DNA of 64,000 nucleotides from the IMG/VR virus record IMGVR_UViG_3300044695_006401. One strand, 5' to 3'. Below, in pieces: positions 7,213 through 46,225 of this stretch. Within the stretch, counting starts at the first letter, position 1; the number at the start of each line of letters is the position of its first letter. The position numbers were made by a program, and so were the translations under genes. The notes beneath the pieces were generated by a model that had not been told where the DNA came from, did no database searches, and was given only the letters and a program-made list of their open reading frames with translations. The DNA comes from a virus. Its lineage: Duplodnaviria; Caudoviricetes.

Positions 7213-7226
7213 TTTTATATTTGTTT

Positions 7227-15830: not shown

Positions 15831-16322
15831 ATGCAAACTTTTCTTCCATATACTGATTTCAGAAAGTCTTTAGAGTCTTTAGACAACAAGCGCTTAGGAA
15901 AACAAAGAGTAGAAGCATATCAAATAATTTCAGCAATAACAGGTCGCACTAGAAAAGATGGTAAACCATATAAGGGTTGGTTAAATCACCCATGTTCTGT
16001 TATGTGGAAAGATTATGTAAACGCGTTAAAACAATACTATAATGATAGTATTGATGTATGGGTTTCTCGTGGATTTAAAAACACAATGGAACACGAACAA
16101 ATTGAAGGTGAGTTTGTTTTACCTCATTGGTTGGGTATGGAAGAATTTCACACTTCACATAGATCAAATCTATTAAGAAAAGATTCTGAGTATTATTCTA
16201 AACATGGGTGGACTGAGGACCCTAACGATCCATATGTATGGATGGATTCTAATGGTGAATGGTACAAACAAATGGTAGGTTCAAAAGAACGAGTATATTT
16301 TAGTGTTGGTGTTCTTGTATAG
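15831..16322 (+). CDS. MSMEG_6728 family / pyrimidine-dimer DNA glycosylase-like protein
   Basis: MQTFLPY.DF..S...LD.KRLGKQRVEA.QI, HP...MW, P.WLG....H.SHRSNLLRKD. Confidence 0.85.
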   Translation: MQTFLPYTDFRKSLESLDNKRLGKQRVEAYQIISAITGRTRKDGKPYKGWLNHPCSVMWKDYVNALKQYYNDSIDVWVSRGFKNTMEHEQIEGEFVLPHWLGMEEFHTSHRSNLLRKDSEYYSKHGWTEDPNDPYVWMDSNGEWYKQMVGSKERVYFSVGVLV

Positions 16323-16434
16323 TATATTCTATAATATTACCATAATCCTCTATCCATTGTAAACATTCCTCCTGAGTCTTATCCGAGAGGACAATGTTTT
16401 CTGTTTCTATTTCTATTACATCGTAAGTAATCAT
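16300..16434 (-). CDS. 44-aa small protein missed by ORF track (MITYDVIEIETENIVLSDKTQEECLQWIEDYGNIIEYTIQEHQH)
   Basis: ATG 2 nt after upstream TAG; 45 codons; tail overlaps convergent gene by 23 nt. Confidence 0.55.
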   Translation of the reverse strand: MITYDVIEIETENIVLSDKTQEECLQWIEDYGNIIEYTIQEHQH

Positions 16435-16436
16435 AT

Positions 16437-17318
16437 CTAACTAAATGTTAAAGTTATTGTTTGAGATGGTGCCCCTACCGTACTTTGATTAGTCCCTCCC
16501 CAGTTAGCATTATTAATCATAGGTCTAAGAGCATATGTACTACCCGCGTTACAACTAGCAATGTTTGAGAACTCAACGGCAACCCCACCAATTTTAGGTG
16601 TACCACATCCCGTACCAACTCTCCAAGACACACTATTAATAGTTACTGAAGTTATTGTGGCGGTTCTTAACCCATTCGCTAAGGTCTGTACTAAGGTTGG
16701 ATCTGAAACCGTTATTGAATTTCCATTTGTACTTGACCATACAAATTGGGTGTATGTAGTACCAGTTAATTGACTTCTAAATGTATTCCAAGCAGTTTCT
16801 ATTGCGGATGATGGTGCAGTCGCCCCTGTGAATGCTTGTGAGAATGTAACACCACTTTCAGGTATAGGATTAGTTGTTGGGGTTGGAGTTGGTGTTGCAG
16901 TAGGAGTAGCTGTTGGTGGTATTGGTGTTGCCGTTGGTGTAGGTGTTGCTGTAGGGGCAACAAAATTCCAAGAACTCCAATACCCATTACCACTTAACCA
17001 TAGATATGCTTCGTTTCCTGTGTTAAATGTTTGTCCTGAAGAAATAAGTTCCGACAACTCAATAAAGTCATTTTCTAAAAAACCATCAGTTCTAAAAAAA
17101 CCAACTGAAGCAGTTTGACCCGATACATTAGTAGGTTGGCTGTTATCAGGTACTGATTGGGCAACAACATAACCAAGATCTTCATCAGGTCCATTCCACC
17201 AAACTGGTGGACCTGAAAACCCCGAAAATGGGGTACCAACGCATAGATCACCAATTTGTGTTGTTCCTGAAATAGAAACTCTTGATGGGTTATATGCAAA
17301 TGGTCTTAGTGTTGGCAT
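16437..17318 (-). CDS. virion fibre-like protein with Pro/Thr linker
   Basis: Start at MPTLRP via TAATG overlap with upstream stop; [11 protein letters not shown] linker; Ser/Thr/Gly-rich beta C-domain. Confidence 0.7.
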   Translation of the reverse strand: MPTLRPFAYNPSRVSISGTTQIGDLCVGTPFSGFSGPPVWWNGPDEDLGYVVAQSVPDNSQPTNVSGQTASVGFFRTDGFLENDFIELSELISSGQTFNTGNEAYLWLSGNGYWSSWNFVAPTATPTPTATPIPPTATPTATPTPTPTTNPIPESGVTFSQAFTGATAPSSAIETAWNTFRSQLTGTTYTQFVWSSTNGNSITVSDPTLVQTLANGLRTATITSVTINSVSWRVGTGCGTPKIGGVAVEFSNIASCNAGSTYALRPMINNANWGGTNQSTVGAPSQTITLTFS

Positions 17319-17584
17319 TAGATAGTTGGCATCGGTGATGTCCATTCAGGAGTTGATAGAATCACCAAAATTTCATCATATGTGTATGGACCTTCTTTTG
17401 TTGTTAAGTTGTTAACACAAGATGGTATCGTACCGTCCCATTTAACAAATGTTTTTGTTTCATTGACTGATTTTCTCACAGTTTCTGCAGATGTTTCTAA
17501 TACGGTTGAGAAGTCGATTTGACCTAACTCACTCACATTAAAAATCATAAATCTTCTGTTGTCGTATTCTTCTAAAGTTGCCAT
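17318..17584 (-). CDS. small hypothetical protein (fibre-associated)
   Basis: 88 aa between LamG and PT-linker genes. Confidence 0.7.
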   Translation of the reverse strand: MATLEEYDNRRFMIFNVSELGQIDFSTVLETSAETVRKSVNETKTFVKWDGTIPSCVNNLTTKEGPYTYDEILVILSTPEWTSPMPTI

Positions 17585-17600
17585 ATCTTTTTATTTATAA

Positions 17601-18566
17601 TTATAATCCAAATCTCGATTTTTGTGCGTTAAAGTTTTGTAATATTTCAGCATCGCTTAATACCCTATTATATACTTGAGCAATTGCAATTCTACCTCCA
17701 AAAACATTAGAACCTGTACCATAAGCACCGACAAGTATTTCACTACCACCATTAAATGTTGATGTACTACTAGAAGTTGACTCAGACGCGCCATTTACAT
17801 ATAATTTCCATCCTGTGGTTGTGTTAAAAGTAACAGCACCAAAATACCAAGTGTTTAAAGATAAAGAAGTCGTACTTACAACGGTTGACCACTGTCCGTT
17901 GTGACCGGCATGTAGTTTATTTGTACCCGCTAACCAAAAAGCATGTTGACCATTATTACCACCACTAATTATGTTATAAAGATAACTGGTTATATAGAAC
18001 CATGAGATTTTTGTATAAGTACTATATGAAAGTATATTAGCATTGGAATTAACTACAACACAATCATTAACACCATCAAATACGATACTACCTCCGTTTG
18101 AGGAGTTAAAAGTGGGCCCATTGGTTAATGTCCCATCATTAACCCCATACGACAAATCATACCATGTGGTTCCTGAAGTGGTGTATGACGGGGTAAATCC
18201 CGCATCCAAGTTCAAAATTAAACCATTAGAACTAATAGCATCATAATCTCTATTAACACAAACATAATTTGTTTGCGTTGCATACCAATTTAAACATTGC
18301 GTAGCGGTATTAAAATTTTGACCTGAAACTCCATTTGTATATGCGATAAGTGCAGCATCGTTATTTGCAGAATGAAAACTCAACCTAGATACCTGACTTG
18401 CATTATATGAATATATTGTGTAACCACCGGCAGAAGGAGTAACCCCATTATAATATGTTGTTGCACTTGAAGGTCCTTTTCCAACATCACCAACACCAAA
18501 GAATATATTACCCTTCTTTAATGAGAGTGTATCACCTGTGGTTGAATATTTAATTGCGTTTGGCAT
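17601..18566 (-). CDS. LamG/concanavalin A-like lectin domain protein (virion fibre/adhesin)
   Basis: LDAG...SY...GTTWYDLS, FDGVND, NTWY...TF......LYVNG, GRIA....YNRVLS..EI.QNFNA. Confidence 0.85.
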   Translation of the reverse strand: MPNAIKYSTTGDTLSLKKGNIFFGVGDVGKGPSSATTYYNGVTPSAGGYTIYSYNASQVSRLSFHSANNDAALIAYTNGVSGQNFNTATQCLNWYATQTNYVCVNRDYDAISSNGLILNLDAGFTPSYTTSGTTWYDLSYGVNDGTLTNGPTFNSSNGGSIVFDGVNDCVVVNSNANILSYSTYTKISWFYITSYLYNIISGGNNGQHAFWLAGTNKLHAGHNGQWSTVVSTTSLSLNTWYFGAVTFNTTTGWKLYVNGASESTSSSTSTFNGGSEILVGAYGTGSNVFGGRIAIAQVYNRVLSDAEILQNFNAQKSRFGL

Positions 18567-18592
18567 CTAATCTTTTATTAGATAAATACCAA

Positions 18593-19522
18593 CTAAATCA
18601 ATTCTATTACCTTATTATAAACTTGAATTACCGATGGGTGACATTCAAAAGTTTCTTTTCTTTCTAAACAACCCACTAAAGATGGGACCCCTTGTATTGT
18701 ACCCCATTCTCTAACCCCGTATTTAACATCCGACGCACAATTTAATCCACAACCACCTCTAACATAATGATATTTATATTCTTGGGATCCGTGTCTGTAT
18801 GGTGATCTAAATTCAGGATTTATTGAACTTCCTAATTGTAATATTTCGCAATCTGTAGTCCCTGCCAAATGTAAAAGACCTGAATCCATTGTTACAAAAC
18901 AAGAACAGTTATTTAATAAATGCCAAGTCTGATCTAAACTTGTTTGATTCATCAAGTTATAACCAATTTTAATTGGGAAATTAAAAATAGGTTTGTCAAC
19001 ATTTGAACCACCTAATTCAGAAGAATCTTTACCTACGGAAATAACATAAATTCCTTTTTCATTTAATAACTGAGTTAACATTTGCCAATTTTTTGCAGTC
19101 CAAGTTCTCGAATCCCAATTTTGTACAGGATGGATTAAAACATATTTTTTTGGTAAATCAGGGAGGATAACATCTCTTGGGAAATAATCTAAAGTCATTT
19201 CATCTTTATTTAACATAAACCCTAAAGAGATCGCATGAAACTGTCTTATATCCATGGCATTATGTTTATTACATATACCATCAGATTTATATGAAATATC
19301 AAATGTATTAATTACATGGTACATTTCTTTTAATTGATCCTGATTTGTAGAACCATCAAAAATATTTTCCACATATGGATTTGATTGAAATAACTCAGGT
19401 ATGTTAGTTATTATAGATATTTTTTTACCATAAGAATTATATAGTTTTTTAATTGTTGGTGTCGAGCATAGTGTGTCCCCTAATGCTCTACAACCAGTTA
19501 TATCTAAACATATTTCTTTCAC
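18593..19522 (-). CDS. GT9-like glycosyltransferase (heptosyltransferase fold) with C-terminal Cys cluster
   Basis: ALGDTLC.TP, YVLIHP...R.W...W..L, FVTMDSGLLHLAG; C-terminal CGLNC...C...FECHP. Confidence 0.8.
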   Translation of the reverse strand: MKEICLDITGCRALGDTLCSTPTIKKLYNSYGKKISIITNIPELFQSNPYVENIFDGSTNQDQLKEMYHVINTFDISYKSDGICNKHNAMDIRQFHAISLGFMLNKDEMTLDYFPRDVILPDLPKKYVLIHPVQNWDSRTWTAKNWQMLTQLLNEKGIYVISVGKDSSELGGSNVDKPIFNFPIKIGYNLMNQTSLDQTWHLLNNCSCFVTMDSGLLHLAGTTDCEILQLGSSINPEFRSPYRHGSQEYKYHYVRGGCGLNCASDVKYGVREWGTIQGVPSLVGCLERKETFECHPSVIQVYNKVIELI

Positions 19523-19574
19523 ATTATAAGAATAAGATACTTCACAATTAAAATCTATATTTTATTTTTTTACT

Positions 19575-22511
19575 ATGGAAAAAATTACACTTCTTTATTT
19601 AACTCCCCACCTTTCAACAGGAGGGATGCCACAGTTTGTACTCAAAAGAATCGAGTCTCTTAAAAAACATTCAGATAAAATTGAAATAGTAGTTGTTGAA
19701 TATTCACAATTTAGTGACACATATGTTGTACAAAGAAACAAAATCATAAATCTAATTGGTCAACACAACTTTTATAGTTTAGGTGATACTACAGATACAC
19801 AAAAAAAGTATGATTTAATAAAAATCATAAAAGATAGAAATATTGATATTGTTCACGCAGAAGAGATACCTGAGGCGTTCGAAAGTTTTAATAGGATACC
19901 TATAGATCTTTTGAATAAACTTTATGATAATTTTAGAACTTGGAAAATTGTTGAGACATGTCACAATGTTTGGTTTGATGCAAATAACAAAAAGAAACTA
20001 CATCCTGATTATTATTGTTTAGTTACGCCGTATCATGAAAAAGTATCGTTTAATCAAACGATATCACCAAAAAAACTTTTAATGTTCCCATACGAAGATA
20101 AAGTAAAACCAATTTTAGAGGAACTTGAAATATATTATGAAGATCACAGAATTCCACTATTAAAAAAAATGACCGAAAGAACTAATTTGGGAATCGACCC
20201 AACGAAGACACATATTTTAAATGTTGGTCTTTGGACGGAAGGTAAAAATCAAAAAGAGGGTATTGAGGTGGCAAGACTTTTACAGGATTCACACCCAAAC
20301 TTACATTTCCATTTTGTTGGAAATCAAGCACCTAACTTCGAAAACTATTGGGGTCCTATCATGAATAATTTACCCAAAAATGTTACAGTTTGGGGAGAAA
20401 GAAATGATGTGGACTCATTTATGATGTCTTGTGATGTTCTCATGTTTAATTCGACATGGGAATGTAATCCACTTGTAGTAAGAGAAGCGGTCAACTATGG
20501 AATGAAAATTTTAACAAGAAATTTACCACAATACATGGGAATGTTTGATAACTACATTACTAGTATTGCAAATGAAGACACATTTGAAAGTATTTCCGAA
20601 AAATTAGTTTCAGTCATTAATTCAGAAAGTTCTTATAAAATTGAAAGTGGTTATGATTTTGGTGATGAGTTAATGTCATTTTATACTGAAGTTAAAAACA
20701 CACCACATATGGGGAATCAACCAATAAAAAATGATTATACGGTTAACCAACATTTTGTTGTAAATCCATACATTGAAATTTTAGGTGATTCAACAAATGA
20801 CATGGAAATATCGGTTTATGATAATCAAAATAATGAGTTGGTGTACACAAACAAATTACCAATAAAACATTGGGTAAAATTAAATCGTGAATATTTCACA
20901 GAATGGAGAACCGAAATAAAAGAAAATGGTGAAACATTTTATTTTGATATTTTGAGTTTAAAAAATAGAAGAGTTTATATTTCATTTGGGTCCAAATCTT
21001 TGGGTGACACAATGGCTTGGATCCCTTATTGCGAAGAGTTCAGAAAAAAACATAATTGCCATTTGATTGCATCAACATTTATGAATGAGCTATTTGTTGA
21101 TCAGTATTCCGAAATAGAATTTGTAAAACCTGGTGATTCAGTTAATAACATCTATGCACAATATAGATTAGGTTGGTTCTATAATGAAGATGGGACCTTC
21201 AATTCAAATGTACATAAAAATGATATTCGAAGACAGCCACTTCAAAAAACAGCAACAGATATATTGGGGTTAGATTATATTGAAATCAGACCAAACCTTA
21301 ATCTACCAAAAGTTGAAAAAAGAAAAAAGGTTGGTATAGGATTTCATTCCACGGCACAATCAAAGTATTGGAACAACCCGAATGGATGGCAAGAAGTTGT
21401 AGATTATTTAAATAATTTGGGGTATGAGTGTATGATATACTCAAGAGAAGGTGATGGTTACATGGGTAATAATTACCCAAAAGGCGTAACAATCTATAAA
21501 GGTGGAAACTTACAAGAAGTGATTAATGATTTATCTACATGTGAGTTTTTTATAGGTTTAGGTTCAGGATTAAGTTGGTTGGCTTGGGCTTGTGAATTAC
21601 CTGTGGTTTTAATCTCAGGGTTTAGTGAAAAATGGGCGGAAACAACTTTAGATACTTACAGAGTTATTAACGAAAATGTTTGTCATGGATGTTTTAATTC
21701 AGAAAGATTAGATGCGGGTGATTGGAACTGGTGTCCGTTACATAAAAATACAGACAGAATGTTTGAGTGTACCAAAAGAATAAGCTCCGATATGGTAGTA
21801 AAAGAAATAAATAAAATAATAAATAAAGAAGTGGTTGAAGAAAGAAAAAATAAATTAGAAGGATTTGATTGGGGTGGAAAAGATAATTGGTATGTTGACG
21901 CAACAATTGAAGAAATGGGTTATGGTAATATGTACGATAGATTTTTTACGGTTGAGGAAAATGATGTTGTTGTAGACTTAGGGGGGTCTTTAGGTCCGTT
22001 CACATATTCAATTCTCCCTAATAACCCAAAACAGTGTTATGTTGTTGAACCCCTAAATTCTCAAGTTGAGGTTATCAAAAAAAATCTTAATAAACCTAAT
22101 GTAAAAATTATTAGAGGTGCAATTACAGATAAAAAACATCTAACAATCACTTGGGACGATGTTTCTGAAAATGTACCAACATTTACATTTAAAGAGTTCT
22201 TAGAGGAAAATAATATAAACCATATTGATTTCTTAAAATGTGATTGTGAGGGAGGGGAATACGATGTATTTCAACCAAGTAATATTGAGTTTTTAAAAAC
22301 CATACCAAAAATTGTAACTGAATTCCATATGAGGGTTAATGAGAATTTTCATAACTGTAAGTTCAGATGGTTTAGAGATAATATACTACCACAATTTAAT
22401 AACTATCAAGTTTTTTCTGTTGATGGTGTTGATATTAAATGGGATTTATGGAATGACCATTTCTTGGATTGGTATTGTGAAGTAATAATTTATATAGACA
22501 ATAGAAACTAA
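19575..22511 (+). CDS. three-domain fusion: GT4-type glycosyltransferase + AAH/TibC-like autotransporter heptosyltransferase + FkbM-like methyltransferase
   Basis: GT4: PHLSTGG, KNQ.EG, FNSTWECNPLVVREA; BAHT: SLGDT.AW.PY.E.F, KYWNN..GW.EV, FFIGL.SGLSWLAWA..LPVVLISGFS, CHGC, WCP.HKNTDR.FECT; FkbM: VVDLGGSLG, IDFLKCDCEGGEY. Confidence 0.88.
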   Translation: MEKITLLYLTPHLSTGGMPQFVLKRIESLKKHSDKIEIVVVEYSQFSDTYVVQRNKIINLIGQHNFYSLGDTTDTQKKYDLIKIIKDRNIDIVHAEEIPEAFESFNRIPIDLLNKLYDNFRTWKIVETCHNVWFDANNKKKLHPDYYCLVTPYHEKVSFNQTISPKKLLMFPYEDKVKPILEELEIYYEDHRIPLLKKMTERTNLGIDPTKTHILNVGLWTEGKNQKEGIEVARLLQDSHPNLHFHFVGNQAPNFENYWGPIMNNLPKNVTVWGERNDVDSFMMSCDVLMFNSTWECNPLVVREAVNYGMKILTRNLPQYMGMFDNYITSIANEDTFESISEKLVSVINSESSYKIESGYDFGDELMSFYTEVKNTPHMGNQPIKNDYTVNQHFVVNPYIEILGDSTNDMEISVYDNQNNELVYTNKLPIKHWVKLNREYFTEWRTEIKENGETFYFDILSLKNRRVYISFGSKSLGDTMAWIPYCEEFRKKHNCHLIASTFMNELFVDQYSEIEFVKPGDSVNNIYAQYRLGWFYNEDGTFNSNVHKNDIRRQPLQKTATDILGLDYIEIRPNLNLPKVEKRKKVGIGFHSTAQSKYWNNPNGWQEVVDYLNNLGYECMIYSREGDGYMGNNYPKGVTIYKGGNLQEVINDLSTCEFFIGLGSGLSWLAWACELPVVLISGFSEKWAETTLDTYRVINENVCHGCFNSERLDAGDWNWCPLHKNTDRMFECTKRISSDMVVKEINKIINKEVVEERKNKLEGFDWGGKDNWYVDATIEEMGYGNMYDRFFTVEENDVVVDLGGSLGPFTYSILPNNPKQCYVVEPLNSQVEVIKKNLNKPNVKIIRGAITDKKHLTITWDDVSENVPTFTFKEFLEENNINHIDFLKCDCEGGEYDVFQPSNIEFLKTIPKIVTEFHMRVNENFHNCKFRWFRDNILPQFNNYQVFSVDGVDIKWDLWNDHFLDWYCEVIIYIDNRN

Positions 22512-23098
22512 TGGAATTTAAGGAAAACAAAATAGACCCGCAAAATTATTATTGGTATCAAAATGGGTTTAGTAAGGAAGAATTAATCAAAGTACATGAA
22601 GGTGTTTCTAATTTACCATTCAGTGAAGCCACTGTTTTTGGAAATGATAATCCTGAGATAATTAAAAAAATTAGAAGTTCGTCCGTTAAGTGGATACCAA
22701 AAACAGATGAGTGGATGTGGTTATATGAAAAACTACTCGACATGGCGAGCACCGCAAACAGAGAGGTTTGGAAGTTTAATCTGATATCAGCTCCCGAGTT
22801 AATTCAGTATACCGAATATTATGACACCGCAGGTGGTCATTATGATTGGCATCAAGATATTGGGCCCGGTATCGGATCAAGTAGAAAGGTTTCTTTGACC
22901 GTTCAACTTTCAGATCCAAGTGAGTATGATGGTGGAGATTTACAGTTATGGAGAGGTGGTGACGATGTTGTTAACGCCGAAAAAGGTGCTGGAGTTGTTT
23001 TTATTTTTCCAAGTTACATGATGCATAGAGTAACCCAAGTGACCAAAGGTACTAGAAGAAGTTTTGTGTTATGGGTTGGTGGTGACCACTATAGATAA
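22511..23098 (+). CDS. 2OG-Fe(II) oxygenase (prolyl-hydroxylase/PKHD-type)
   Basis: YDWHQD, RK.S..VQLS.P.EY.GG.L, HRVT.VTKG.R.S.V.W. Confidence 0.88.
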   Translation: MEFKENKIDPQNYYWYQNGFSKEELIKVHEGVSNLPFSEATVFGNDNPEIIKKIRSSSVKWIPKTDEWMWLYEKLLDMASTANREVWKFNLISAPELIQYTEYYDTAGGHYDWHQDIGPGIGSSRKVSLTVQLSDPSEYDGGDLQLWRGGDDVVNAEKGAGVVFIFPSYMMHRVTQVTKGTRRSFVLWVGGDHYR

Positions 23099-27247: not shown

Positions 27248-27293
27248 ATTTTTATTGTAAAAATATGAAATGTTTAAGTTAAATAAATAGAAG

Positions 27294-27746: not shown

Positions 27747-27753
27747 ATTAACA

Positions 27754-36837: not shown

Positions 36838-36946
36838 CTATTTTTTCTTTTTTCCCTCTCCAAAAGAAAACCCTTTGATTTATGTTTTATAGATAAATAT
36901 TACCTGAGTAAAGTTTATCCACCAAAAAGAAAAATTAAATAATTAT

Positions 36947-39900
36947 TTAGAATATAATTCTTGTTGAAACAAGTATAGTCCATGTTCCTCCACCTATAGC
37001 GCAAGCTAATTCGACACTACCACCAGAAACCTGAACTTTCCAAACAAAATTTGCCGTGGAACCACCCAAATCAGGACTTGATACATCGGTACCATCCCCA
37101 TTCGTGTTATTCCATACTGCGTACACTTGACCTATCCTTTTTGCTCCACCATTTTCAGTAACACAATATTCAAATATAGCACCACACCCAATATCAGTAC
37201 CGTAAGATTCAACAACTTGTCCAGAAGAGATATTCGTCAAACTTGTTGTATTAACTAAACTGTGTGTAGAATTAAGAGTTAAAGTACCATCAGATCCGTT
37301 ATATGTAAATCCAGATTCAGCAACAATATTACCAGACCCATCCGAAGTTAGTACCTCGTTGTCAGCCCCAGGAACTATAGGTGTAGTACCACTTGTTCCA
37401 TTCGTTCCGTTAGTTCCTGATGTACCGTTAGTCCCGCTAGTTCCATTTGTTCCAGAAGTACCATTAGTTCCTGATGTTCCATTAGTCCCTGAAGTTCCGT
37501 TTGTACCTGAAGTACCATTCGTACCGTTAGTACCTGATGTACCATTAGTTCCCGATGTCCCGTTAGTCCCGTTTGTTCCCGAAGTACCATTCGTACCGCT
37601 AGTTCCGTTAGTTCCACTCGTACCATTCGTACCGCTAGTTCCATTTGTTCCGTTAGTTCCACTCGTACCATTCGTACCGCTAGTTCCATTTGTTCCGTTA
37701 GTTCCACTCGTACCATTCGTACCATTGGTACCGCTAGTCCCATTTGTCCCACTAGTTCCGTTCGTCCCATTAGTCCCGTTAGTACCTGAAGTACCATTTG
37801 TACCATTTGTTCCAGAAGTACCGTTTGTACCTGATGTTCCGTTGGTTCCATTTGTTCCGTTTGTTCCTGAAGTACCGTTTGTACCGTTGGTTCCACTTGT
37901 CCCATTAGTCCCTGAGGTTCCATTTGTACCATTTGTTCCAGAAGTACCGTTTGTACCTGATGTACCATTTGTTCCCGAAGTACCATTAGTACCGTTTGTT
38001 CCTGATGTTCCGTTAGTACCGTTGGTACCACTAGTTCCATTAGTCCCTGAGGTTCCGTTAGTTCCATTCGTTCCGCTAGTTCCATTCGTTCCGCTAGTTC
38101 CGTTTGTACCTGATGTTCCGTTTGTTCCATTAGTTCCTGAAGTTCCATTCGTTCCGCTAGTTCCGTTTGTACCATTCGTCCCTGAAGTTCCATTGGTACC
38201 TGAGGTACCGTTTGTCCCATTCGTTCCGCTAGTACCATTAGTTCCTGATGTTCCGTTAGTTCCATTCGTTCCTGATGTACCATTTGTTCCATTAGTCCCT
38301 GACGTTCCGTTTGTACCATTTGTACCTGACGATCCATTAGTCCCTGAAGTTCCGTTTGTACCTGATGTACCGTTTGTACCATTCGTCCCTGAAGTTCCAT
38401 TGGTTCCACTTGAACCATTTGTTCCGTTAGTTCCTGAAGTACCGTTAGTACCGTTCGTTCCCGATGTTCCGTTTGTTCCACTAGTACCATTAGTTCCTGA
38501 AGTCCCATTCGTTCCGTTTGTACCTGATGTTCCGTTTGTTCCATTAGTTCCTGAAGTACCGTTAGTACCCGATGTTCCGTTTGTTCCTGATGTTCCATTT
38601 GTACCTGAAGTACCATTAGTTCCATTTGTACCTGAAGTTCCATTAGTACCTGATGTTCCATTAGTACCATTTGTTCCTGAAGTTCCATTAGTACCATTTG
38701 TTCCTGAAGTTCCGTTAGTACCTGAAGTACCATTAGTTCCGTTAGTTCCTGACGTTCCGTTCGTTCCTGATGTACCATTAGTTCCTGAAGTTCCATTCGT
38801 ACCGTTAGTTCCGCTAGTACCATTCGTACCGCTTGTTCCGTTAGTCCCCGAAGTTCCATTGGTTCCATTAGTACCTGATGTTCCATTAGTACCTGATGTT
38901 CCGTTTGTACCTGATGTTCCATTTGTACCATTAGTCCCACTTGTACCGTTTGTACCATTTGTCCCGCTAGTTCCATTAGTACCTGAAGTTCCGTTTGTTC
39001 CTGAAGTTCCATTAGTACCGTTAGTTCCTGACGTTCCGTTAGTTCCGTTTGTTCCCGATGTTCCATTAGTACCATTTGTTCCACTTGTGCCGTTAGTACC
39101 GTTAGTTCCTGAAGTACCATTTGTTCCGCTAGTTCCGTTAGTACCATTCGTTCCACTAGTACCATTAGTTCCGTTTGTTCCCGATGTTCCATTCGTTCCA
39201 CTAGTACCATTAGTTCCCGAAGTACCATTAGTACCATTAGTTCCTGATGTTCCATTTGTACCTGAGGTTCCATTTGTTCCATTTGTTCCGCTAGTGCCGT
39301 TTGTACCTGAAGTTCCGTTAGTTCCTGAAGTTCCATTTGTACCATTTGTACCGCTAGTTCCATTTGTCCCATTCGTACCTGAGGTACCATTTGTTCCACT
39401 TGTACCATTTGTTCCATTTGTACCTGAAGTGCCGTTTGTTCCGTTGGTTCCTGAAGTTCCGTTTGTCCCATTGGTACCATTTGTTCCTGAAGTTCCGTTT
39501 GTACCTGAAGTACCATTAGTTCCACTCGTACCATTAGTTCCCGATGTTCCATTGGTGCCGTTAGTCCCATTCGTTCCACTAGTTCCGTTAGTTCCATTTG
39601 TACCTGATGTGCCGTTAGTACCATTTGTTCCAGAAGTCCCGTTAGTACCTGAAGTACCATTAGTCCCGTTAGTACCAGAAGTTCCGTTTGTACCACTAGT
39701 TCCATTAGTTCCACTAGTTCCATTAGTTCCATTAGTTCCACTAGTTCCTGAAGATCCATTTGTACCATTAGTACCTGAAGTTGATGTGTAAGCAACCGCA
39801 GCAACTCCGATGTTCTTGATAGTTACTATAATTGATGGTGCCGCAGGTGCTATGTAAGGTGATGTTTGAGCCGCCTCCGCTGTCAATTGGACATCTTCTG

Positions 39901-42900
39901 AAGTACTAGCAAAAACTAATTCCAAGTAATCATTTTGTTGTAAATCAGCCACGATCGAAACAAATGGTAATTGTTTGACGCTATTAGACACTAATCCTAA
40001 AATACTATCAGTTCTTATTATATTAGTACCATTTTTTCTAACAAAGAAATCCACATCTACAGCAGCACCCCCTTGATTTTTTTCAACTTGGGGGGAAAAA
40101 CTGAATTCATATATACCTGAGTATTGTACAGTTACCCTACTTCCGCTCACAACCGAAATACCATTCTCAATTTCAACCGTATTGTATGTTACAACCGTAG
40201 GGGTATTTGCCCCTGAAACTTGTTGTGTTAAACTACTACTATATTGGGCATAATAGTTAGCAACCCCCGCACCACTACTTCCTGAAGTCCCATTTGTCCC
40301 GCTAGTTCCGTTCGTACCATTAGTCCCTGAAGTTCCGTTTGTACCATTAGTCCCTGAAGTTCCATTAGTCCCTGAAGTACCATTTGTACCGTTAGTTCCG
40401 CTAGTTCCATTTGTACCATTGGTCCCGTTCGTACCTGATGTTCCATTTGTTCCGCTAGTTCCATTTGTTCCGCTAGTACCGCTAGTTCCATTTGTTCCGC
40501 TAGTACCGTTAGTTCCATTCGTTCCTGAAGTCCCATTTGTACCGCTTGATCCATTAGTACCCGATGTTCCATTGGTTCCGTTCGTTCCGCTCGTACCATT
40601 TGTTCCACTTGAACCATTGGTTCCATTTGTTCCGCTAGTACCATTAGTTCCTGAGGTTCCGTTCGTTCCGTTAGTACCACTTGTACCATTTGTTCCGTTA
40701 GTACCTGAAGTTCCGTTCGTTCCACTAGTTCCATTTGTACCATTCGTTCCACTCGTACCGTTAGTACCCGAAGTACCATTTGTTCCATTGGTTCCGCTCG
40801 TACCGTTAGTACCTGAAGTTCCATCTGTTCCGTTGGTTCCTGAAGTTCCATTAGTACCACTTGACCCATCTGTTCCATTAGTTCCTGATGTTCCGTCTGT
40901 ACCATTAGTCCCTGAAGTACCATTTGTTCCACTTGACCCATCCGTACCATTAGTTCCGCTGGTTCCGTCGCTACCACTAGTACCATCTGTTCCGTTTGTT
41001 CCTGAAGTTCCGTCAGTTCCCGACGTTCCATTAGTTCCGTCAGTACCGCTAGTACCATCTGTTCCGTTAGTTCCTGAAGTTCCATTAGTCCCATTTGTAC
41101 CTGAAGTTCCGTTGGTACCATTCGTACCGCTAGTTCCATTCGTACCATTTGTACCACTACTTCCATCCGTACCGCTAGTTCCATCGGTACCATTAGTTCC
41201 GTTTGTACCATTCGTTCCTGACGTTCCATCCGTTCCTGACGTTCCATCCGTACCTGAAGTTCCATCTGTCCCTGAAGTTCCATCCGTTCCGTTTGTTCCA
41301 CTTGTACCATCCGTTCCGTTAGTACCTGAAGTACCATCTGTTCCGCTTGAACCATCCGTTCCATTAGTACCTGATGTTCCGTCTGTACCGTTGGTTCCTG
41401 AAGTTCCATCTGTACCATTTGTACCTGAAGTACCATCCGTACCATCCGTACCATTTGTTCCGCTAGTTCCATCTGTTCCGCTAGTACCATCCGTACCATT
41501 AGTTCCTGAAGTTCCATTCGCACCATTAGTCCCATTTGTACCATTAGTCCCGCTTGTACCATTTGTACCATTAGTCCCGCTTGTACCATTTGTACCTGAT
41601 GTTCCGTTTGTACCTGAAGTACCGTTAGTTCCATTTGTTCCGTTAGTACCCGAAGTTCCGTTGGTGCCACTTGTACCATTGGTTCCATTTGTACCAGAAG
41701 TCCCATTTGTTCCACTAGTACCATTAGTCCCTGAAGTACCGTTTGTACCGTTAGTTCCACTTGTGCCGTTCGTACCTGAAGTTCCATTAGTACCGTTTGT
41801 ACCTGATGTTCCATTCGTACCGTTAGTACCTGAAGTACCATTTGTTCCTGATGTTCCATTGGTTCCTGATGTACCGTTAGTACCATTTGTTCCTGAGGTT
41901 CCATTGGTTCCGGATGTTCCGTTTGTTCCGCTAGTACCATTCGTTCCGTTAGTACCTGATGTCCCGTTTGTCCCATTTGTACCTGATGTTCCATTTGTAC
42001 CACTAGTACCGTTTGTACCTGAAGTTCCGTTAGTTCCATTAGTTCCGCTAGTACCATTAGTCCCTGATGTCCCATTTGTACCATTACTTCCCGATGTTCC
42101 ATCGGTCCCGCTAGTACCATTAGTTCCAGAAGTTCCGTCGGTACCGCTCGACCCTGAAGTTCCTGATGTGCCGTCTGTTCCTGAGGATCCACTTGTTCCG
42201 CTAGTACCATCCGTACCACTAGAACCTGATGTTCCACTTGTGCCATCGGTACCGCTTGATCCTGAAGAACCTGATGTTCCACTTGTTCCGTCAGTACCTG
42301 AAGAACCGCTTGTGCCGCTTGAACCAGATGTCCCTGATGTACCGTCTGTTCCGCTAGAACCTGAAGTTCCACTTGTACCGTCAGTACCGCTCGACCCTGA
42401 AGTTCCTGATGTGCCGTCTGTTCCTGAGGACCCACTTGTTCCGCTAGAACCTGATGTCCCGCTAGAACCTGATGTCCCGCTAGTTCCGTCAGTTCCTGAA
42501 GATCCACTTGTTCCACTAGTACCATCTGTACCTGAAGATCCGCTCGTCCCATTAGTACCATCTGTTCCTGAAGTTCCATCCGTACCTGAAGTACCATCTG
42601 TTCCTGAAGTACCATCTGTTCCACTTGTCCCGTCTGTTCCGTTAGTACCTGAAGAACCACTAGTGCCATCCGTACCATTTGTTCCTGATGAACCACTAGT
42701 TCCATCAGTTCCGCTTGAACCCGAAGTTCCGTTAGTACCATCCGTACCGCTTGTTCCACTAGTCCCATCTGTTCCGCTAGAACCAGATGTTCCATCTGTG
42801 CCTGAAGACCCATTTGTCCCATCAGTACCTGAGGTTCCACTTGACCCACTAGTGCCATTCGTACCACTTGAACCTGATGTACCGTTAGTTCCATTAGTTC

Positions 42901-45043
42901 CTGAAGATCCGCTAGTCCCGTCTGTACCGCTCGTTCCATCGGTACCGCTAGAACCTGATGTTCCGTCTGTCCCTGAAGAACCTGAAGTTCCGCTAGTTCC
43001 ATCCGTACCTGAAGTTCCGCTAGTTCCATCCGTACCTGAAGATCCGCTAGACCCATCTGTTCCGCTAGTCCCTGAAGTTCCATCTGTACCATTAGTGCCT
43101 GATGTTCCGCTAGTCCCTGAAGTTCCATCTGTTCCGTTAGTTCCACTTGAACCATTTGTTCCATTCGTTCCGCTAGTACCATTCGTTCCGTTTGTACCTG
43201 ATGTTCCGTTTGTACCATTAGTTCCCGAAGTTCCGTTTGTACCACTTGAACCATTTGTTCCTGATGTACCGTTAGTTCCATTTGTGCCTGAGCTTCCGCT
43301 AGTACCATTTGTTCCACTAGAACCATCTGTACCATTTGTTCCCGAAGTTCCGTCTGTACCATCTACACCCGATAAACCACTAGTTCCGTTTGTACCTGAC
43401 GATCCATCGGTACCGTTTGTTCCGCTAGTTCCGCTAGTTCCATTCGTACCTGAAGACCCATTTGTACCGTTAGTTCCTGATGAACCATTAGTTCCATTTG
43501 TGCCCGATGATCCGTTAGTTCCATCAGTGCCGCTTGTACCATTGGTTCCGTTTGTTCCTGAAGTCCCATTAGTTCCATCATTACCACTCGTACCATCTGT
43601 ACCACTAGACCCATCTGTTCCACTAGTACCATCAGTACCGTTTGTTCCGCTACTTCCGCTTGTTCCGTTTGTACCTGAAGTACCATCAGTACCGTTTGTT
43701 CCTGAAGATCCGTTAGATCCGTTAGTTCCGTTTGTACCTGAGGTACCGTCAGTACCACTAGTCCCATTAGTACCAGATGTACCGTTTGTACCGGAAGTAC
43801 CATCAGATCCTGAAGTACCATTTGTTCCAGATGTTCCGTTAGTTCCATTAGTACCGCTAGTACCATTCGTTCCATTTGTTCCTGAAGACCCATTTGTGCC
43901 GTTAGTTCCTGATGATCCGTCTGTACCACTAGACCCATCAACACCACTTGTTCCATTTGTACCTGAAGACCCGTTAGTACCATTGGTACCACTACTTCCT
44001 GAAGTCCCATTTGTACCTGATGTACCATCGGACCCCGAAGACCCATTAGTCCCCGAAGTTCCACTCGTACCATTAACTCCCGAAATACCACTAGTACCAT
44101 CAGTACCATTTGTTCCTGATGTCCCACTTGACCCGTTAGCAGTTATTCCTGTAATAGAAACAACTCCATTGTCAGTTCTAAATAATTCAATTGTACTTGA
44201 CGCTGAATAGTATGTTCCTCCGGTCACATATATGTCTGTAAAACCAGTTAAAAACCCTGTTACATTGAATGTTCCTCCCGTATTATTTGTAAAAGTCGCA
44301 GTACCATTATTTGGGTCATAGGTACCACCTGTGACAACTATTTCAGGAGGTAAACCTAAATAAGTTGTTGCAGAAAAACTACCATTAACAGTCAAACCTG
44401 TAAAATCATTTACAGTTGTAGAGTAAGTCCCGCCTGTCACATCAAATATCGTAAATGTATTATTACCATATGTAAAAGCAGAAATACCACTTCCTTGACC
44501 ACCTGTTGTAAATTTTCTCCATGTCGAATTACTACCTCCACCATTATAACCTTCAACAGTATTTCCTGTCCAAGCATTTATAAAAGCAATACCCGCGGCA
44601 CTATTAGATTTTACAGTTGTACCAAATTCTGAAACAACTACAGTGGATCCACCAGGACCTGTTGCCCCTGTGGCATTATTCCATAATGTTTGGTAGTTTG
44701 GAATTTGAAATTGATATACTTCTTGTGTTTCTTGAACATAAGCCAACATACCTAATCTTCTTCTTCCTGAAGAGATGTTATCTGATCCAAGTGTTAATAC
44801 ATCAGGTGAAAATATAGACCCTGTTCCTTTTTGTAATTGAATAGGGATAGTATTACCTGATATTTCTATATATCCTGTTGAACCTGATGGTACGGTGAAA
44901 AATAAGTCACTTATATTGTATACCTCCATGTACCCACCAACTCCTAAAATACTGAAGTTTGTTCCATAGGTACTTGTTCTAGATACTGAACTTGCACCTA
45001 GTACATTTATTGGGGTTATTGGGTTTTTATATAATCCAGACAT
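36947..45043 (-). CDS. giant collagen-like fibre protein B (2698 aa) with internal C1q/BclA-CTD-like domain
   Basis: About 300-aa N-domain, about 1290 Gly-X-Y residues, about 160-aa beta insert, about 800 Gly-X-Y residues, C-terminal beta domain. Confidence 0.88.
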   Translation of the reverse strand: MSGLYKNPITPINVLGASSVSRTSTYGTNFSILGVGGYMEVYNISDLFFTVPSGSTGYIEISGNTIPIQLQKGTGSIFSPDVLTLGSDNISSGRRRLGMLAYVQETQEVYQFQIPNYQTLWNNATGATGPGGSTVVVSEFGTTVKSNSAAGIAFINAWTGNTVEGYNGGGSNSTWRKFTTGGQGSGISAFTYGNNTFTIFDVTGGTYSTTVNDFTGLTVNGSFSATTYLGLPPEIVVTGGTYDPNNGTATFTNNTGGTFNVTGFLTGFTDIYVTGGTYYSASSTIELFRTDNGVVSITGITANGSSGTSGTNGTDGTSGISGVNGTSGTSGTNGSSGSDGTSGTNGTSGSSGTNGTNGSSGTNGTSGVDGSSGTDGSSGTNGTNGSSGTNGTNGTSGTNGTNGTSGTNGTSGSDGTSGTNGTSGTNGTSGTDGTSGTNGTNGSNGSSGTNGTDGTSGTNGTSGSSGTNGTDGTSGTDGSSGTDGTSGNDGTNGTSGTNGTNGTSGTDGTNGSSGTNGTNGSSGTNGTNGSSGTNGTSGTSGTNGTDGSSGTNGTSGLSGVDGTDGTSGTNGTDGSSGTNGTSGSSGTNGTNGTSGTNGSSGTNGTSGTNGTNGTSGTNGTNGTSGTNGTNGSSGTNGTDGTSGTSGTSGTNGTDGTSGTSGTDGSSGSSGTDGTSGTSGTDGTSGTSGSSGTDGTSGSSGTDGTSGTDGTSGSSGTNGTNGTSGSSGTNGTSGSSGTSGTDGTNGSSGTDGTSGSSGTDGTSGTSGTDGTNGTSGSSGTDGTSGSSGTNGTDGTSGSSGTNGTDGTSGTDGTSGTDGTSGTDGTSGTDGTNGTSGSSGTDGTSGTSGSSGTDGTSGTSGSSGTSGSSGTSGSSGTDGTSGTSGSSGTDGTSGTSGSSGTDGTSGTSGSSGTSGSSGTDGTSGTSGSSGSSGTDGTSGTSGSSGTDGTSGTSGSSGTDGTSGTSGSSGTDGTSGTNGTSGTDGTSGSNGTNGTSGTNGTSGTNGTNGTSGTNGTSGTNGTSGTNGTNGTSGTNGTNGTSGTNGTSGTNGTSGTNGTNGTSGTNGTSGTNGTSGTNGTNGTSGTNGTNGTSGTNGTSGTNGTNGTSGTNGTSGTNGTSGTNGTNGTSGTNGTSGTNGTNGTNGTSGTNGTSGTNGTSGTNGTNGTSGTNGTNGTNGANGTSGTNGTDGTSGTDGTSGTNGTDGTDGTSGTNGTDGTSGTNGTDGTSGTNGTDGSSGTDGTSGTNGTDGTSGTNGTDGTSGTDGTSGTDGTSGTDGTSGTNGTNGTNGTDGTSGTDGSSGTNGTNGTSGTNGTNGTSGTNGTNGTSGTNGTDGTSGTDGTNGTSGTDGTSGTNGTDGTSGSDGTSGTNGTDGSSGTNGTSGTNGTDGTSGTNGTDGSSGTNGTSGTNGTDGTSGTNGTSGTNGTNGTSGTNGTSGTNGTNGTSGTNGTSGTNGTNGTSGTNGTNGTSGTNGTSGTNGTNGSSGTNGTSGTNGTNGTSGTNGSSGTNGTSGTNGTNGTSGTNGTSGTSGTNGTSGTNGTSGTNGTNGTNGTSGTNGTNGTSGTNGTSGTNGTNGTSGTNGTNGTSGTNGTSGSSGAGVANYYAQYSSSLTQQVSGANTPTVVTYNTVEIENGISVVSGSRVTVQYSGIYEFSFSPQVEKNQGGAAVDVDFFVRKNGTNIIRTDSILGLVSNSVKQLPFVSIVADLQQNDYLELVFASTSEDVQLTAEAAQTSPYIAPAAPSIIVTIKNIGVAAVAYTSTSGTNGTNGSSGTSGTNGTNGTSGTNGTSGTNGTSGTNGTNGTSGTNGTSGTNGTNGTSGTNGTNGTSGTNGTNGTNGTSGTNGTSGTNGTSGTNGTSGTNGTNGTNGTSGTNGTNGTSGTNGTNGTSGTNGTSGTNGTNGTSGTNGTNGTSGTNGTSGTNGTSGTNGTNGTSGTNGTSGTNGTNGTSGTNGTSGTNGTSGTNGTNGTSGTNGTNGTSGTNGTSGTNGTNGTSGTNGTNGTSGTNGTNGTSGTNGTNGTSGTNGTSGTNGTSGTNGTNGTSGTNGTNGTSGTNGTSGTNGTSGTNGTNGTSGTNGTSGTNGTSGTNGTNGTSGTNGTSGTNGTSGTNGTNGTSGTNGTSGTNGTNGTSGTNGTNGTSGTNGTSGTNGTNGTSGTNGTSGTNGTSGTNGTSGTNGTNGTSGTNGTNGTSGTNGTSGTNGTSGTNGTNGTSGTNGTNGSSGTNGTSGTNGTNGTSGTNGTSGTNGSSGTNGTNGTSGTNGTNGTSGTNGTNGTSGTNGTSGTNGTNGTSGTNGTSGTNGTNGTSGTNGTSGTNGTNGTSGTNGTSGTNGTSGTNGTNGTSGTNGTSGTNGTNGTSGTNGTNGTSGTNGTSGTNGTSGTNGTNGTSGTNGTSGTNGTNGTSGTNGTNGTNGTSGTNGTSGTNGTNGTSGTNGTNGTNGTSGTNGTSGTNGTNGTSGTNGTNGTSGTNGTSGTNGTNGTSGTNGTSGTNGTSGTNGTSGTNGTNGTSGTNGTSGTNGTNGTSGTNGTSGTNGTSGTNGTSGTNGTSGTNGTSGTNGTNGTSGTTPIVPGADNEVLTSDGSGNIVAESGFTYNGSDGTLTLNSTHSLVNTTSLTNISSGQVVESYGTDIGCGAIFEYCVTENGGAKRIGQVYAVWNNTNGDGTDVSSPDLGGSTANFVWKVQVSGGSVELACAIGGGTWTILVSTRIIF
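37388..44134 (-). repeat. two Gly-X-Y tracts (40274-44134: [12 protein letters not shown]; 37388-39775: GTN/GTS)
   Basis: Direct translation. Confidence 0.95.
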
Positions 45044-45061
45044 TAATTGTAAACATTAAAA

Positions 45062-46225
45062 TTATGGTTGGGTGTCGTTCCCTCTAAAATAAATATTTGT
45101 TGAATCAAGTATTTTGAATATTTGGTAAGGGAATGTGGTATATACTTTATACGTATCTGCAGGAATTGTCGAACCAGTATACACCAAGTCATATTGGTAA
45201 ATCGTTGGTTCAGTATTAACTCCTGTAAATAAATTAGCATCACCCGTAGTGTTTATGTCAATTTTAACTTGGTATTCGTCGTTAGTTGCACTAAATGGTA
45301 TCAACCATGTATACCAAGCCTGTCCGTTCACTGTCCCGGCAGGTACTTCTGTTGTTAAGAAGTTGTAAGCGTATATAGGGTTACCAAAACTATCCAAACC
45401 TCCACTTACTTGTGGTACAGTTTGAGTAATTATTGATGGGAATTGAGAGTTAGTCCACCCTGCGTAATCAACATATAAGTTCATATCGATATCGAATTGA
45501 GCTTGATTTTGTGTTGGTTGCGAAGAGTTAGAGAATCCAAAGAAGTTAGATCCGCTGTTATACATCCATGTACCAATGTCTTCTGATCCATCTATAGGTT
45601 CTATGAATAAGTATGCAAATGTATTCAAGAACGGAGTAGGTGTTGGAGTAGGTGTTGCAGTTGGTGTTGGTGTAGGTGTTTCTGTTGGTGTTGCAGTCGG
45701 CGTTGTTGTCGGTGTTGGGGTTACGGTTGGTGTCGGTGTTATAGTTGGTGTTGGTGTTGCAGTTGGTGTTGATGTCGGAGTTGCGGTTGGCGTTGCAGTC
45801 GGTGTTGGTGACATTGTTGGTGTCGGAGTTGGTGTAGGAGTTGGATCCAATGTAACAGGTGGAGGTGCCGGAAAACAACAAAAATCACTATCCACAATTG
45901 ATTCCAAAATAGATATAAATAAAACATCTCTTAAAGGTAGAATTACAGTTCCTTGAGTTGTTTGGATACTAAATTCTCCTTTAAACCTACCTATTTTACT
46001 TGTATTTTTTTCTGTGAATTGATAATATATAGAATTTCTTTCAGATGAGTAAGAACACAAAGCATTTGCAATACGATATACACCTGTGTCAACATCTATC
46101 ATGGAAAAATAGATGGTACTCCCCGTTAAGTTATTATAAGGGTAGTTATAATCTAATTTTCCGTCTTTGATGAGGTCTATTTCAAGGTATGGTAGAGTGC
46201 TCTTTTTGCGAATAAAAAATTCCAT
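45062..46225 (-). CDS. structural protein: BppU-N-like domain + long Pro/Thr linker + C-terminal domain
   Basis: F.I.K.STLP.LEI.L, YQFT...T...G.F.GEF.I resembles baseplate upper protein N-domain; about 70-aa PT linker. Confidence 0.65.

Follow-up and report, generated by a model that had tools for sequence, protein, structure and literature searches.

A putative protein-glycosylation gene cluster beside two genes for giant collagen-like proteins in a tailed phage

We analysed a 64,000-nucleotide (nt) stretch of the IMG/VR virus record IMGVR_UViG_3300044695_006401 (Caudoviricetes), from a large uncultured lake phage, hereafter called the window, which has a GC content of ~31% and carries tailed-phage genes such as a portal gene (phrog_213, E=1e-65) and a large terminase gene. 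The window contains a block of seven modification genes (18593-27247) encoding a glycosyltransferase (GT) of family GT9, a GT4-BAHT-FkbM fusion protein, a 2-oxoglutarate (2OG)-Fe(II) oxygenase, a flavin adenine dinucleotide (FAD) enzyme, two GT2 glycosyltransferases and a DUF6445 protein. On its left the block is flanked by genes for a protein with a Pro/Thr (PT) linker and a LamG protein, and on its right by genes for a 150-amino-acid (aa) PT/Cys-rich protein, two giant proteins made of Gly-X-Y triplets and a 387-aa PT-linker protein. This layout of giants, seven enzymes and fibre, LamG and PT-linker flanks had been outlined in a preliminary description of the sequence, and each of its elements was located where that description had placed it. 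Here we describe these genes, which may together form a system that glycosylates the fibres of the phage itself.

The modification enzymes and the Gly-X-Y giants

The gene at 19575..22511 (+ strand) encodes a 978-aa triple fusion of a GT4 domain (residues ~200-353; PF00534), a BAHT protein O-glycosyltransferase domain (409-748) and an FkbM methyltransferase domain (798-922; PF05050/TIGR01444). The BAHT domain scores 270.8 bits against the TIGR04414 equivalog model (cut-off 200), covering model positions 28-374 of 374, and aligns with residues 61-386 of TibC (4rap) with E=7e-66. The preliminary assignment of this protein to the AAH/TibC (BAHT) enzymes is thus correct at the equivalog level. We mapped the residues named in PMC4358343 onto the alignment of the window protein with TibC. 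TibC residues T226, K230, W305, F368 and the cysteines C339, C342, C358 and C370 are retained, as is the catalytic D110 (Ala in the 4rb4 entry); the equivalents in the window protein include D478, T593, K597 and W668 and the iron-finger cysteines C703, C706, C720 and C732. In TibC, W305 contacts O4 of the heptose, and T226 and K230 are among the catalytic and donor-phosphate residues (PMC4358343). The Asp, Lys, Trp and four Cys residues are invariant in 63 distinct phage homologues, and the Cys residues recur in almost all of the 141 homologues from phages and cells. At the thumb's tip, F265/V266 of TibC correspond to Tyr and Met in the window protein. The ring-shaped dodecamer of the BAHT family is assembled through the thumb and the iron finger, and the fused GT4 and FkbM domains may alter the oligomeric state of the BAHT domain of the window protein.

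A stand-alone, BAHT-like GT9 is encoded at 18593..19522 (- strand; PF01075, 57.3 bits), with a weak TIGR04414 match (28 bits) and WaaF-like matches. This 309-aa protein can be aligned with the BAHT domain at 25% identity, including the LGD motif. It is 64-77% conserved and lies beside the fusion gene in most relatives, and on these sequence comparisons the GT9 and the GT4-BAHT-FkbM fusion constitute a conserved core module. Domain scans identified no autotransporter in the window, and so no AIDA-type passenger that could serve as the cognate substrate. Membership in TIGR04414, taken together with the Gly-X-Y neighbours, places the enzyme within the BAHT family by sequence but in a subfamily with a different partner.

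Giant 1 (27754..36837, - strand) is a 3027-aa protein with a 105-aa N-terminal domain, 912 Gly-X-Y triplets (904 uninterrupted and 8 more) and a 184-aa C-terminal globular domain. It contains 440 GTN and 295 GTS triplets, and the GTN/GTS repeats are followed by a C-terminal stretch of GAQ/GPQ type. Its N-terminus matches phage families (weakly Phage_depo_C), and 31 relatives of its C-terminal domain are encoded on viral contigs. Giant 2 (36947..45043, - strand) is 2698 aa long and consists of a 303-aa N-terminal domain (54-81% conserved in relatives), 430 triplets, an internal domain, 266 further triplets and a 144-aa C-terminal domain; its 696 triplets include 312 GTN, 252 GTS, 64 GTD and 54 GSS. 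A Pfam scan of the terminal domains of the giants returned nearly nothing. The internal 163-aa insert of giant 2 (39776-40264; residues 1594-1756) was modelled with AlphaFold2 (AF2) at a pLDDT of 91, and its top PDB matches in Foldseek are the BclA C-terminal domain, F-BclA, BxpB/ExsF, TNF ligands and C1q. The model suggests that the insert is a BclA_C/C1q-like trimer domain, the trimeric jelly roll typical of the ends of collagen-like stalks, and giant 2 thus has a predicted trimerising domain adjacent to its repeats. Small phage proteins with a domain of this type also bear Mtd_N.

Both giants share with collagen-like proteins a long uninterrupted Gly-X-Y repeat (904 triplets in giant 1; 430 and 266 in giant 2). 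The presence of Gly at every third residue over such runs, and the recurrence of the pairing with the enzymes across many independent contigs, argue that the pattern is not due to chance. We regard other long open reading frames over the repeats as shadow frames, because the chosen frame reaches non-repeat ends that have homologues and a confidently predicted fold. Pro makes up 1% of giant 1 and less than 1.4% of giant 2, where it is not among the eight commonest residues, and X is nearly always Thr or Ser. With Pro at ~1%, the giants lack the Pro/hydroxyproline-rich X and Y positions with which classical collagen stabilises its helix. The collagen triple helix rises by ~0.29 nm per residue, and the repeats would measure ~780 nm in giant 1 and 370 and 230 nm in giant 2 if they were fully triple-helical. 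Even phages with terminases at 83-89% identity differ in their number of triplets, from tens to ~1000.

The five remaining genes of the block lie between the core module and the giants. The 2OG-Fe(II) oxygenase (22511..23098, + strand; PF13640, 52.3 bits, cut-off 27) is of the prolyl-4-hydroxylase (P4H)-like (PKHD) type; it matches PiuC/PKHD hydroxylases (E=3e-6) and, weakly, P4H, and its translation contains H-Q-D and a distal His. The FAD enzyme (23089..24291, - strand) is a UDP-galactopyranose mutase (UGM) homologue: 23 of 23 PDB matches are UGM (best E=4.8e-20), and the score against Pfam GLF is 17.7 bits, below the cut-off of 26.3. GT2a (24278..25423, - strand) combines a GT2 domain with a helical domain resembling tetratricopeptide repeats (TPR), an architecture like that of SunS, ThuS and GmaR; in its AF2 model (pLDDT 91) strands are followed by 11 helices. 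Foldseek matches this model over its full length to SunS/ThuS (E ~4e-13, next class ~1e-7) at ~14% identity, and the best sequence match is GmaR (E=1e-4). The equivalog score is far below the cut-off (22.5 vs 350 bits), so GT2a is an architectural relative of SunS, ThuS and GmaR rather than a member of their family. The earlier lead that a GT2-TPR enzyme at this locus may modify proteins holds, given the predicted SunS/ThuS-type fold. GT2a has more than 634 homologues, many of which are ~617-aa fusions with an N-terminal P4H-like domain. The fused domain of one such relative (P0056) is only marginally similar to the 2OG and DUF6445 proteins of the window, which rules out that it is a copy of either and makes it a third type of hydroxylase. 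GT2b (25416..26666, - strand; PF00535, 52.3 bits) is a generic GT2 with chondroitin synthase and TarP-type matches and, from its sequence and its fixed position among these genes, a probable chain extender. The DUF6445 protein (26663..27247, - strand; PF20043, 50.4 bits) is encoded by the first gene of the minus-strand enzyme operon. Its translation contains H-x-D and a distal His, one Atlas cluster unites DUF6445 with PF13640, and it is probably a second 2OG-oxygenase-like enzyme.

A candidate regulatory motif, TATTTAT, links several of these genes. It occurs 42 times in the window, and 21 of the occurrences lie within 90 nt upstream of genes, compared with ~1.3 expected. The motif sits on the coding strand, often only 11-22 nt ahead of the start codon, and precedes both giants, the portal gene, the LamG gene and the DUF6445 gene, which heads the enzyme operon (examples lie upstream of 36837, 45043, 27247 and 3185). 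Its offsets are -22 for LamG, -42 for DUF6445, -62 for giant 1 and -11 for the 387-aa PT-linker gene. It may be a phage promoter or an element of the initiation region.

Association of BAHT genes with collagen-like genes

Relatives of the BAHT domain are encoded on 357 IMG/VR contigs, and the near-complete IMG/VR relatives of the window phage are 274-292 kb in size. The order of genes in close relatives is conserved: GT9, LamG and the fusion gene, followed with almost no gap by the start of a convergent GTN/GTS giant. A Ser/Thr-rich Gly-X-Y gene lies within 12 kb of 34 of the 63 distinct phage BAHT domains; the flanks of 25 others are truncated, and the remaining four have full flanks but no such gene. 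The association thus holds for 34/38 of the domains with enough flanking sequence, deep branches included. In three of five exceptional records, GSS/GTS giants lie in another part of the record (pattern matches number 172-738, vs 0 for a reversed-pattern control). A 735-kb phage also pairs a BAHT with a Ser/Thr-rich Gly-X-Y gene. So does an isolate, the Microcystis phage Mel-JY01 (PP395634.1), in which a GTS/GSS frame of at least 1016 aa lies 1.7 kb upstream of an FkbM-BAHT gene.

The association was also examined starting from the repeats. At least 119 contigs match a degenerate DNA pattern that describes GTN/GTS repeats, and nine large giant-bearing contigs whose short loci had no BAHT could be searched. 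In six of the nine, among them both contigs that are at least 90% complete, a BAHT scoring above the cut-off lies elsewhere. Co-occurrence of BAHT genes with GTN/GTS giants, which the preliminary description had proposed as a check of its interpretation, was thus found from both sides. As a baseline, only 4 of the 50,697 deposited phage records in INPHARED match the BAHT domain. Many of the loci from L115 onward were selected for having the repeat. A 2x2 test controlled for lineage by means of terminase relatives was dropped, as the best 80 matches are all 83-89% identical, mostly small fragments, and gave no contrast. The locus itself is hypervariable: with terminases at 83-89% identity, the BAHT domains are 51-79% identical and the giants vary from ~500 to more than 3000 aa across relatives.

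The repeats are easily missed by gene callers. The GTS/GSS frame of Mel-JY01, at 2-3049 (+), runs off the start of the record, and the deposited annotation over the repeat consists of minus-strand 'hypothetical protein' coding sequences (1-651 and 739-2298) and a 177-aa plus-strand coding sequence (2519-3052). The collagen-like gene of this phage is probably mis-annotated. Likewise, in the relative locus L333 the callers report V/Q/L-rich shadow-frame 'proteins' (4062-6383, and similarly in other loci) where the real gene, in frame 2..7660, encodes a 2553-aa GSS/GTS giant. Since shadow frames are annotated by gene callers and in one deposited record, such fibres are under-counted in protein databases.

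The association extends to bacterial chromosomes. A profile of the phage BAHT domains matched 521 stretches in species-representative genomes, of which 79 loci were kept. Cellular BAHTs at least 41% identical to the window domain have a Ser/Thr-rich Gly-X-Y neighbour in 27/40 cases, compared with 5/39 for more distant ones. The gap between the two genes has a median of 222 nt and is within 2 kb in 30 of 32 pairs. Many of the more distant BAHTs adjoin G/T/A-rich proteins of 1500-2500 aa, and both of those that were scanned are AIDA/ESPR autotransporters. In a complete Methylobacter chromosome (L343 8881-11065), a gene for a 432-aa BAHT begins 40 nt beyond the end of one whose 281-aa product has a signal peptide and includes a GTN/GTS stretch (PF01391). 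This pair is flanked by GrpE/DnaK and by CsiV, glycolate-oxidase-like and MiaB-like genes, housekeeping neighbours which indicate that it is not in a prophage. Two-gene cassettes for a small secreted collagen-like protein and a BAHT were also seen at ~30 other cellular loci (within L336-L381), in methanotrophs, Polaromonas, Arenicellales, Bdellovibrio-like and other bacteria. In a joint FastTree phylogeny of 141 domains, the 65 rows with a Gly-X-Y partner and the 11 with an autotransporter-like partner are separated by a single change. Our literature search retrieved no paper connecting BAHTs with phages or with collagen-like proteins, and none on Mel-JY01.

Variation among the phage loci suggests that the seven genes are organised as a conserved core and, as a second module, an accessory cassette of DUF6445, GT2b, the SunS-like GT2a and the UGM homologue; the 2OG-oxygenase gene is likewise accessory. 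All seven genes that had been described as a single cluster are present, and the cluster is refined here to core plus cassette. The order DUF6445, GT2b, GT2a (or P4H::GT2a), UGM recurs directly 3' of a giant in divergent contigs. Its occurrence was confined to loci in which GAQ/GAT/GPQ triplets form the end of the giant. All eight cassette loci (8/8) have giants with 9-117 GAQ/GAT/GAA triplets, whereas 207 giant-bearing loci without the cassette have a median of 0 (95th percentile 2.7, maximum 22). Pro triplets number 12-52 in the seven cassette loci with a separate 2OG gene and are absent from the one without. Three relatives (L415, L416 and L333) carry further sugar genes 3' of the cassette, encoding a DegT aminotransferase, a hexapeptide acyltransferase, an NTP transferase and extra GT9, FkbM and GT2 proteins. 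This suggests that the composition of the glycan probably differs between closely related phages.

A putative glycosylation system for collagen-like fibres

We think it likely, from the enzyme families and their gene linkage, that the phage encodes a soluble protein-glycosylation system acting on its own collagen-like fibres. The same inference had been drawn from the window alone, and it gains support from the co-occurrence in phages and in cellular chromosomes. The BAHT domain would place the first sugar on the Ser/Thr hydroxyls of GTN/GTS/GSS triplets in the cytoplasm, after which the fused GT4 and the neighbouring GT9 would add more sugars and the fused FkbM domain would methylate the glycan. 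The accessory cassette would serve the GAQ/GPQ segment near the C-terminus of giant 1: the P4H-like oxygenase, perhaps together with the DUF6445 protein, would hydroxylate Pro, GT2a would glycosylate the segment, the UGM homologue would supply a furanose donor and GT2b would extend the chain. With the giants as acceptors, the product would be a trimeric, BclA-like 'glycocollagen' fibre on the virion, ~0.6-0.8 micrometres long if fully triple-helical. Each Asn of a GTN triplet followed by GT forms an N-X-T sequon. An N-glycosylation reading was set aside, as domain scans found no enzyme of N-glycosyltransferase type and the BAHT partners elsewhere are GTS/GSS/GTT/GTA repeats with little Asn. 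Because those partners are poor in Asn, the shared feature is the hydroxyl residue.

Several observations weigh against this interpretation. The glycosylation of the giants and their location on the virion are inferred from family membership, linkage and covariation. TibC threads a beta-helix rather than a triple helix, and we know of no demonstration of BAHT action on a collagen-like sequence. Two of the five exceptional records have a BAHT and no such repeat, namely G015 (85% complete) and the 636-kb phage LR756504, and three giant-bearing fragments have no BAHT. The linkage in phages is in part inherited synteny, and much of it reflects shared ancestry. The cassette loci may share one ancestor, and they adjoin the segment with which they covary, so physical linkage or common descent may explain part of that covariation. 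The BAHT fusion gene is preceded by a variant of TATTTAT rather than an exact copy, and the GT9 gene has none. GT9, GT4, GT2 and UGM are equally typical of polysaccharide pathways, and similar clusters in jumbo cyanophages have been interpreted as serving modification of the host capsule (PMC7824862).

The identity of the sugar is a further difficulty. The adenine-contact residue Arg286 of TibC is Val in the window protein, and the stereoselectivity residue 300 is Gly, where Pro or Ser would be expected for ADP-heptose. At the Arg286 position, collagen-partnered BAHTs mostly have Val, Ile or Leu and autotransporter-partnered BAHTs have Arg in 11/11 cases. Homologues of gmhA and rfaE were not found in the closest near-complete relatives. 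With the adenine-contact Arg lost and close relatives without heptose synthesis genes, heptose is from the sequence neither supported nor excluded. Of the preliminary designation as a heptosyltransferase-like cluster, the BAHT family membership stands, and heptose as the sugar is not supported. Near-cut-off matches came only from a 373-kb BAHT-bearing IMG/VR phage with terminal repeats (G012), in which one gene resembles gmhA (188 bits, cut-off 209) and another rfaE domain II (107 bits). This suggests that some relatives may make their own activated heptose.

The enzymes could instead act on other phage proteins, such as the PT-linker and LamG proteins or capsid and tail subunits, in place of or in addition to the giants, which might be mere neighbours. 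PT-linker and LamG genes are indeed also conserved beside the core module, the gene for the 150-aa PT/Cys-rich protein lies between giant and enzymes in relatives, and the P4H-like enzyme could as well hydroxylate PT linkers. The proteins that are glycosylated in mycobacteriophage virions are those of the capsid and the tail tube (Freeman et al. 2023, as cited in PMC12619734). In cellular genomes, by contrast, the partner of the BAHT is a collagen-like protein and no LamG or PT-linker genes were noted nearby; Mel-JY01 and the deep-branching phage loci again have the Gly-X-Y gene as the common neighbour, and the cassette covaries with the type of triplet within the giant. We therefore judge other acceptors to be an unlikely explanation of the cluster.

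Modification of host envelope glycans (lipopolysaccharide core, capsule or O-antigen), for example to block superinfection or mask a receptor, is also improbable. GT9 is the family of the lipopolysaccharide heptosyltransferases, GT4, GT2 and UGM are frequent in polysaccharide loci, and jumbo-cyanophage clusters of GTs, 2OG enzymes and methyltransferases have been read in this way (PMC7824862). Yet the BAHT is protein-directed at the equivalog level, GT2a has the architecture of a peptide GT, and the P4H fusion in its relatives suggests a protein substrate. In scans, none of the seven enzymes had a convincing membrane segment, and the window yielded neither lipid-carrier genes nor a flippase, polymerase or priming transferase. 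Nor would envelope modification lead one to expect such a cluster to be tightly linked to collagen-like genes, both in bacteria and in phages with different hosts. The absence of any functional link, with fibre and sugar genes as fast-evolving cargo of one plastic region and enzymes that act on DNA bases or small molecules, would suit the hypervariability of the locus and the frequent modification of DNA by phage GTs (PMC12619734), but it is very improbable given the median 222-nt pairing in unrelated bacterial chromosomes, the clean split of partners on the BAHT tree and a cluster in which domain scans found no base-modifying enzymes.

BAHTs, glycosylated BclA, modification of Mimivirus collagen and virion glycosylation in mycobacteriophages are already known, and the putative fibre-glycosylation system resembles each in part. 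The window enzyme is homologous to TibC/Aah (TIGR04414; 4rap, 4rb4; PMC4358343) over the beta-barrel, GT-B catalytic domain, thumb and iron finger, and its gene likewise adjoins one for a long, repetitive, Ser/Thr-rich surface protein that it would hyperglycosylate in the cytoplasm. It differs in its Gly-X-Y collagen-like partner, in place of an AIDA-type beta-helix, in its fusion to GT4 and FkbM, and at residues 286 and 300. Mycobacteriophage GTs decorate the phages' own structural proteins, as shown by experiment according to the account of Freeman et al. 2023 in PMC12619734. That account resembles our case in having phage-encoded GTs for structural proteins, known here from genes alone, and differs in its enzyme families and in its acceptors, the C-termini of capsid and tail-tube subunits.

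The giants share with BclA of the Bacillus anthracis exosporium, and with F-BclA of F-ENA fibres, a Thr-rich Gly-X-Y stalk, a TNF/C1q-like trimer domain and a number of triplets that varies among relatives. The Thr residues of BclA bear O-linked oligosaccharides with a terminal O-methylated sugar, and the length of the exosporial hairs is set by the number of repeats. BclA has tens of GPT-type triplets with Thr at Y and a C-terminal BclA_C domain, whereas the phage giants have 700-900 triplets with Thr at X and ~1% Pro, and the BclA_C-like domain of giant 2 is internal. We know of no BAHT for BclA. Mimivirus encodes collagen-like proteins and the bifunctional hydroxylase/glycosyltransferase L230, and animals have the collagen lysyl hydroxylase-glycosyltransferase LH3. 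The likeness, which is one of description, lies in a virus that combines collagen-like genes of its own with 2OG-hydroxylase and glycosyltransferase activities, which are fused in one polypeptide in relatives of the window phage. Unlike L230 and LH3, the window hydroxylase is of prolyl/PKHD rather than lysyl type, the glycosyltransferase is a SunS-like GT2 and the host is bacterial. GmaR, an O-GlcNAc transferase, glycosylates flagellin, and SunS and ThuS are glycocin S-glycosyltransferases. GT2a resembles them along its full length in combining GT2 with helical repeats, and its sequence similarity to them is weak, but the P4H-like fusion of its relatives is not seen in SunS or GmaR.

If the fibre-glycosylation interpretation is true, collagen-like proteins would become a second and probably larger class of substrates for BAHTs, which so far are known only as virulence-linked modifiers of autotransporter adhesins. 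An abundant group of lake jumbo phages would build sugar-coated fibres far exceeding known tail fibres in length, which bears on how they find hosts, adhere to particles and biofilms and resist proteases. More tentatively, a BAHT clade of bacteria and phages may be dedicated to proline-free 'glycocollagen', Ser/Thr-rich Gly-X-Y stalks with a helix stabilised by dense O-glycosylation instead of hydroxyproline. In this scenario phages would have expanded the fibres to ~0.8 micrometres, with classes of triplet matched to modules: BAHT/GT4/FkbM for GT(N/S), and a P4H-fused SunS-like GT2 with a furanose-making mutase for GAQ/GPQ. A natural collagen helix without proline would be relevant to biomaterials. 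The isolated Mel-JY01 and the two-gene cassette of cultured Methylobacter offer tractable systems.

Flanking genes and genome context

A Megablast search with the head-gene region of the window returned 0 matches among deposited phages, indicating no close deposited relative. To the left of the enzyme block, a 302-aa protein with a Pro/Thr linker is encoded at 16437..17345 (- strand); it matches no Pfam family, and its relatives (46-60% identity) are on the same side of the locus. The conserved 88-aa protein encoded at 17318..17584 (- strand) has no assigned role, and 76-84% identical copies adjoin LamG genes in relatives. The LamG gene (17601..18566, - strand; PF13385 Laminin_G_3, 62.3 bits) encodes a protein with a concanavalin-like lectin fold that matches phrog_8510 ('virion structural protein') and phrog_24074, and is present in one to several copies per relative. 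Its product is probably a virion structural protein, judging from these matches.

On the right of the block, the 150-aa protein (27294..27746, - strand) combines a PT linker with a Cys-rich C-terminus and lies between giant 1 and the enzymes; it is 43-57% conserved, and in relatives its gene is directly 3' of the giant whether or not the cassette is present. The 387-aa protein with a long PT linker (45062..46225, - strand) is always encoded just upstream of the start of giant 2, and its homologues (48-83%) adjoin the giant-2 N-terminal domain in relatives. At the opposite end of the locus, a gene for a 163-aa protein (15831-16322, + strand) is 79-91% identical in relatives and forms the conserved left border of the variable fibre/glycosylation region. 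Its counterpart in the relative locus L417 is called as PF03013 (pyrimidine dimer glycosylase).

Further to the left, a transfer-messenger RNA (tmRNA) gene at 14235-14652 (+ strand) matches Rfam RF00023 over the full model length with 71.5 bits (gathering score 47). ARAGORN reported no gene in the whole window, the tmRNA included, and the tmRNA is therefore atypical. Near it, 8884-12018 (+ strand) encodes a ClpC-like AAA+ protein (phrog_4871, 742 bits) followed by an M20/M42-type peptidase, which may constitute a phage proteolysis module. To the right of the locus, two large proteins (51689-53860 and 60362-62596, both - strand) carry C-terminal sorting domains of the type IX secretion system, scoring 27.3 bits for Por_Secre_tail and 47.4 bits for CHU_C, the latter with a PKD-like domain. 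These domains point to a Bacteroidota host and raise the question of whether phage proteins are exported by the type IX secretion system of the host.

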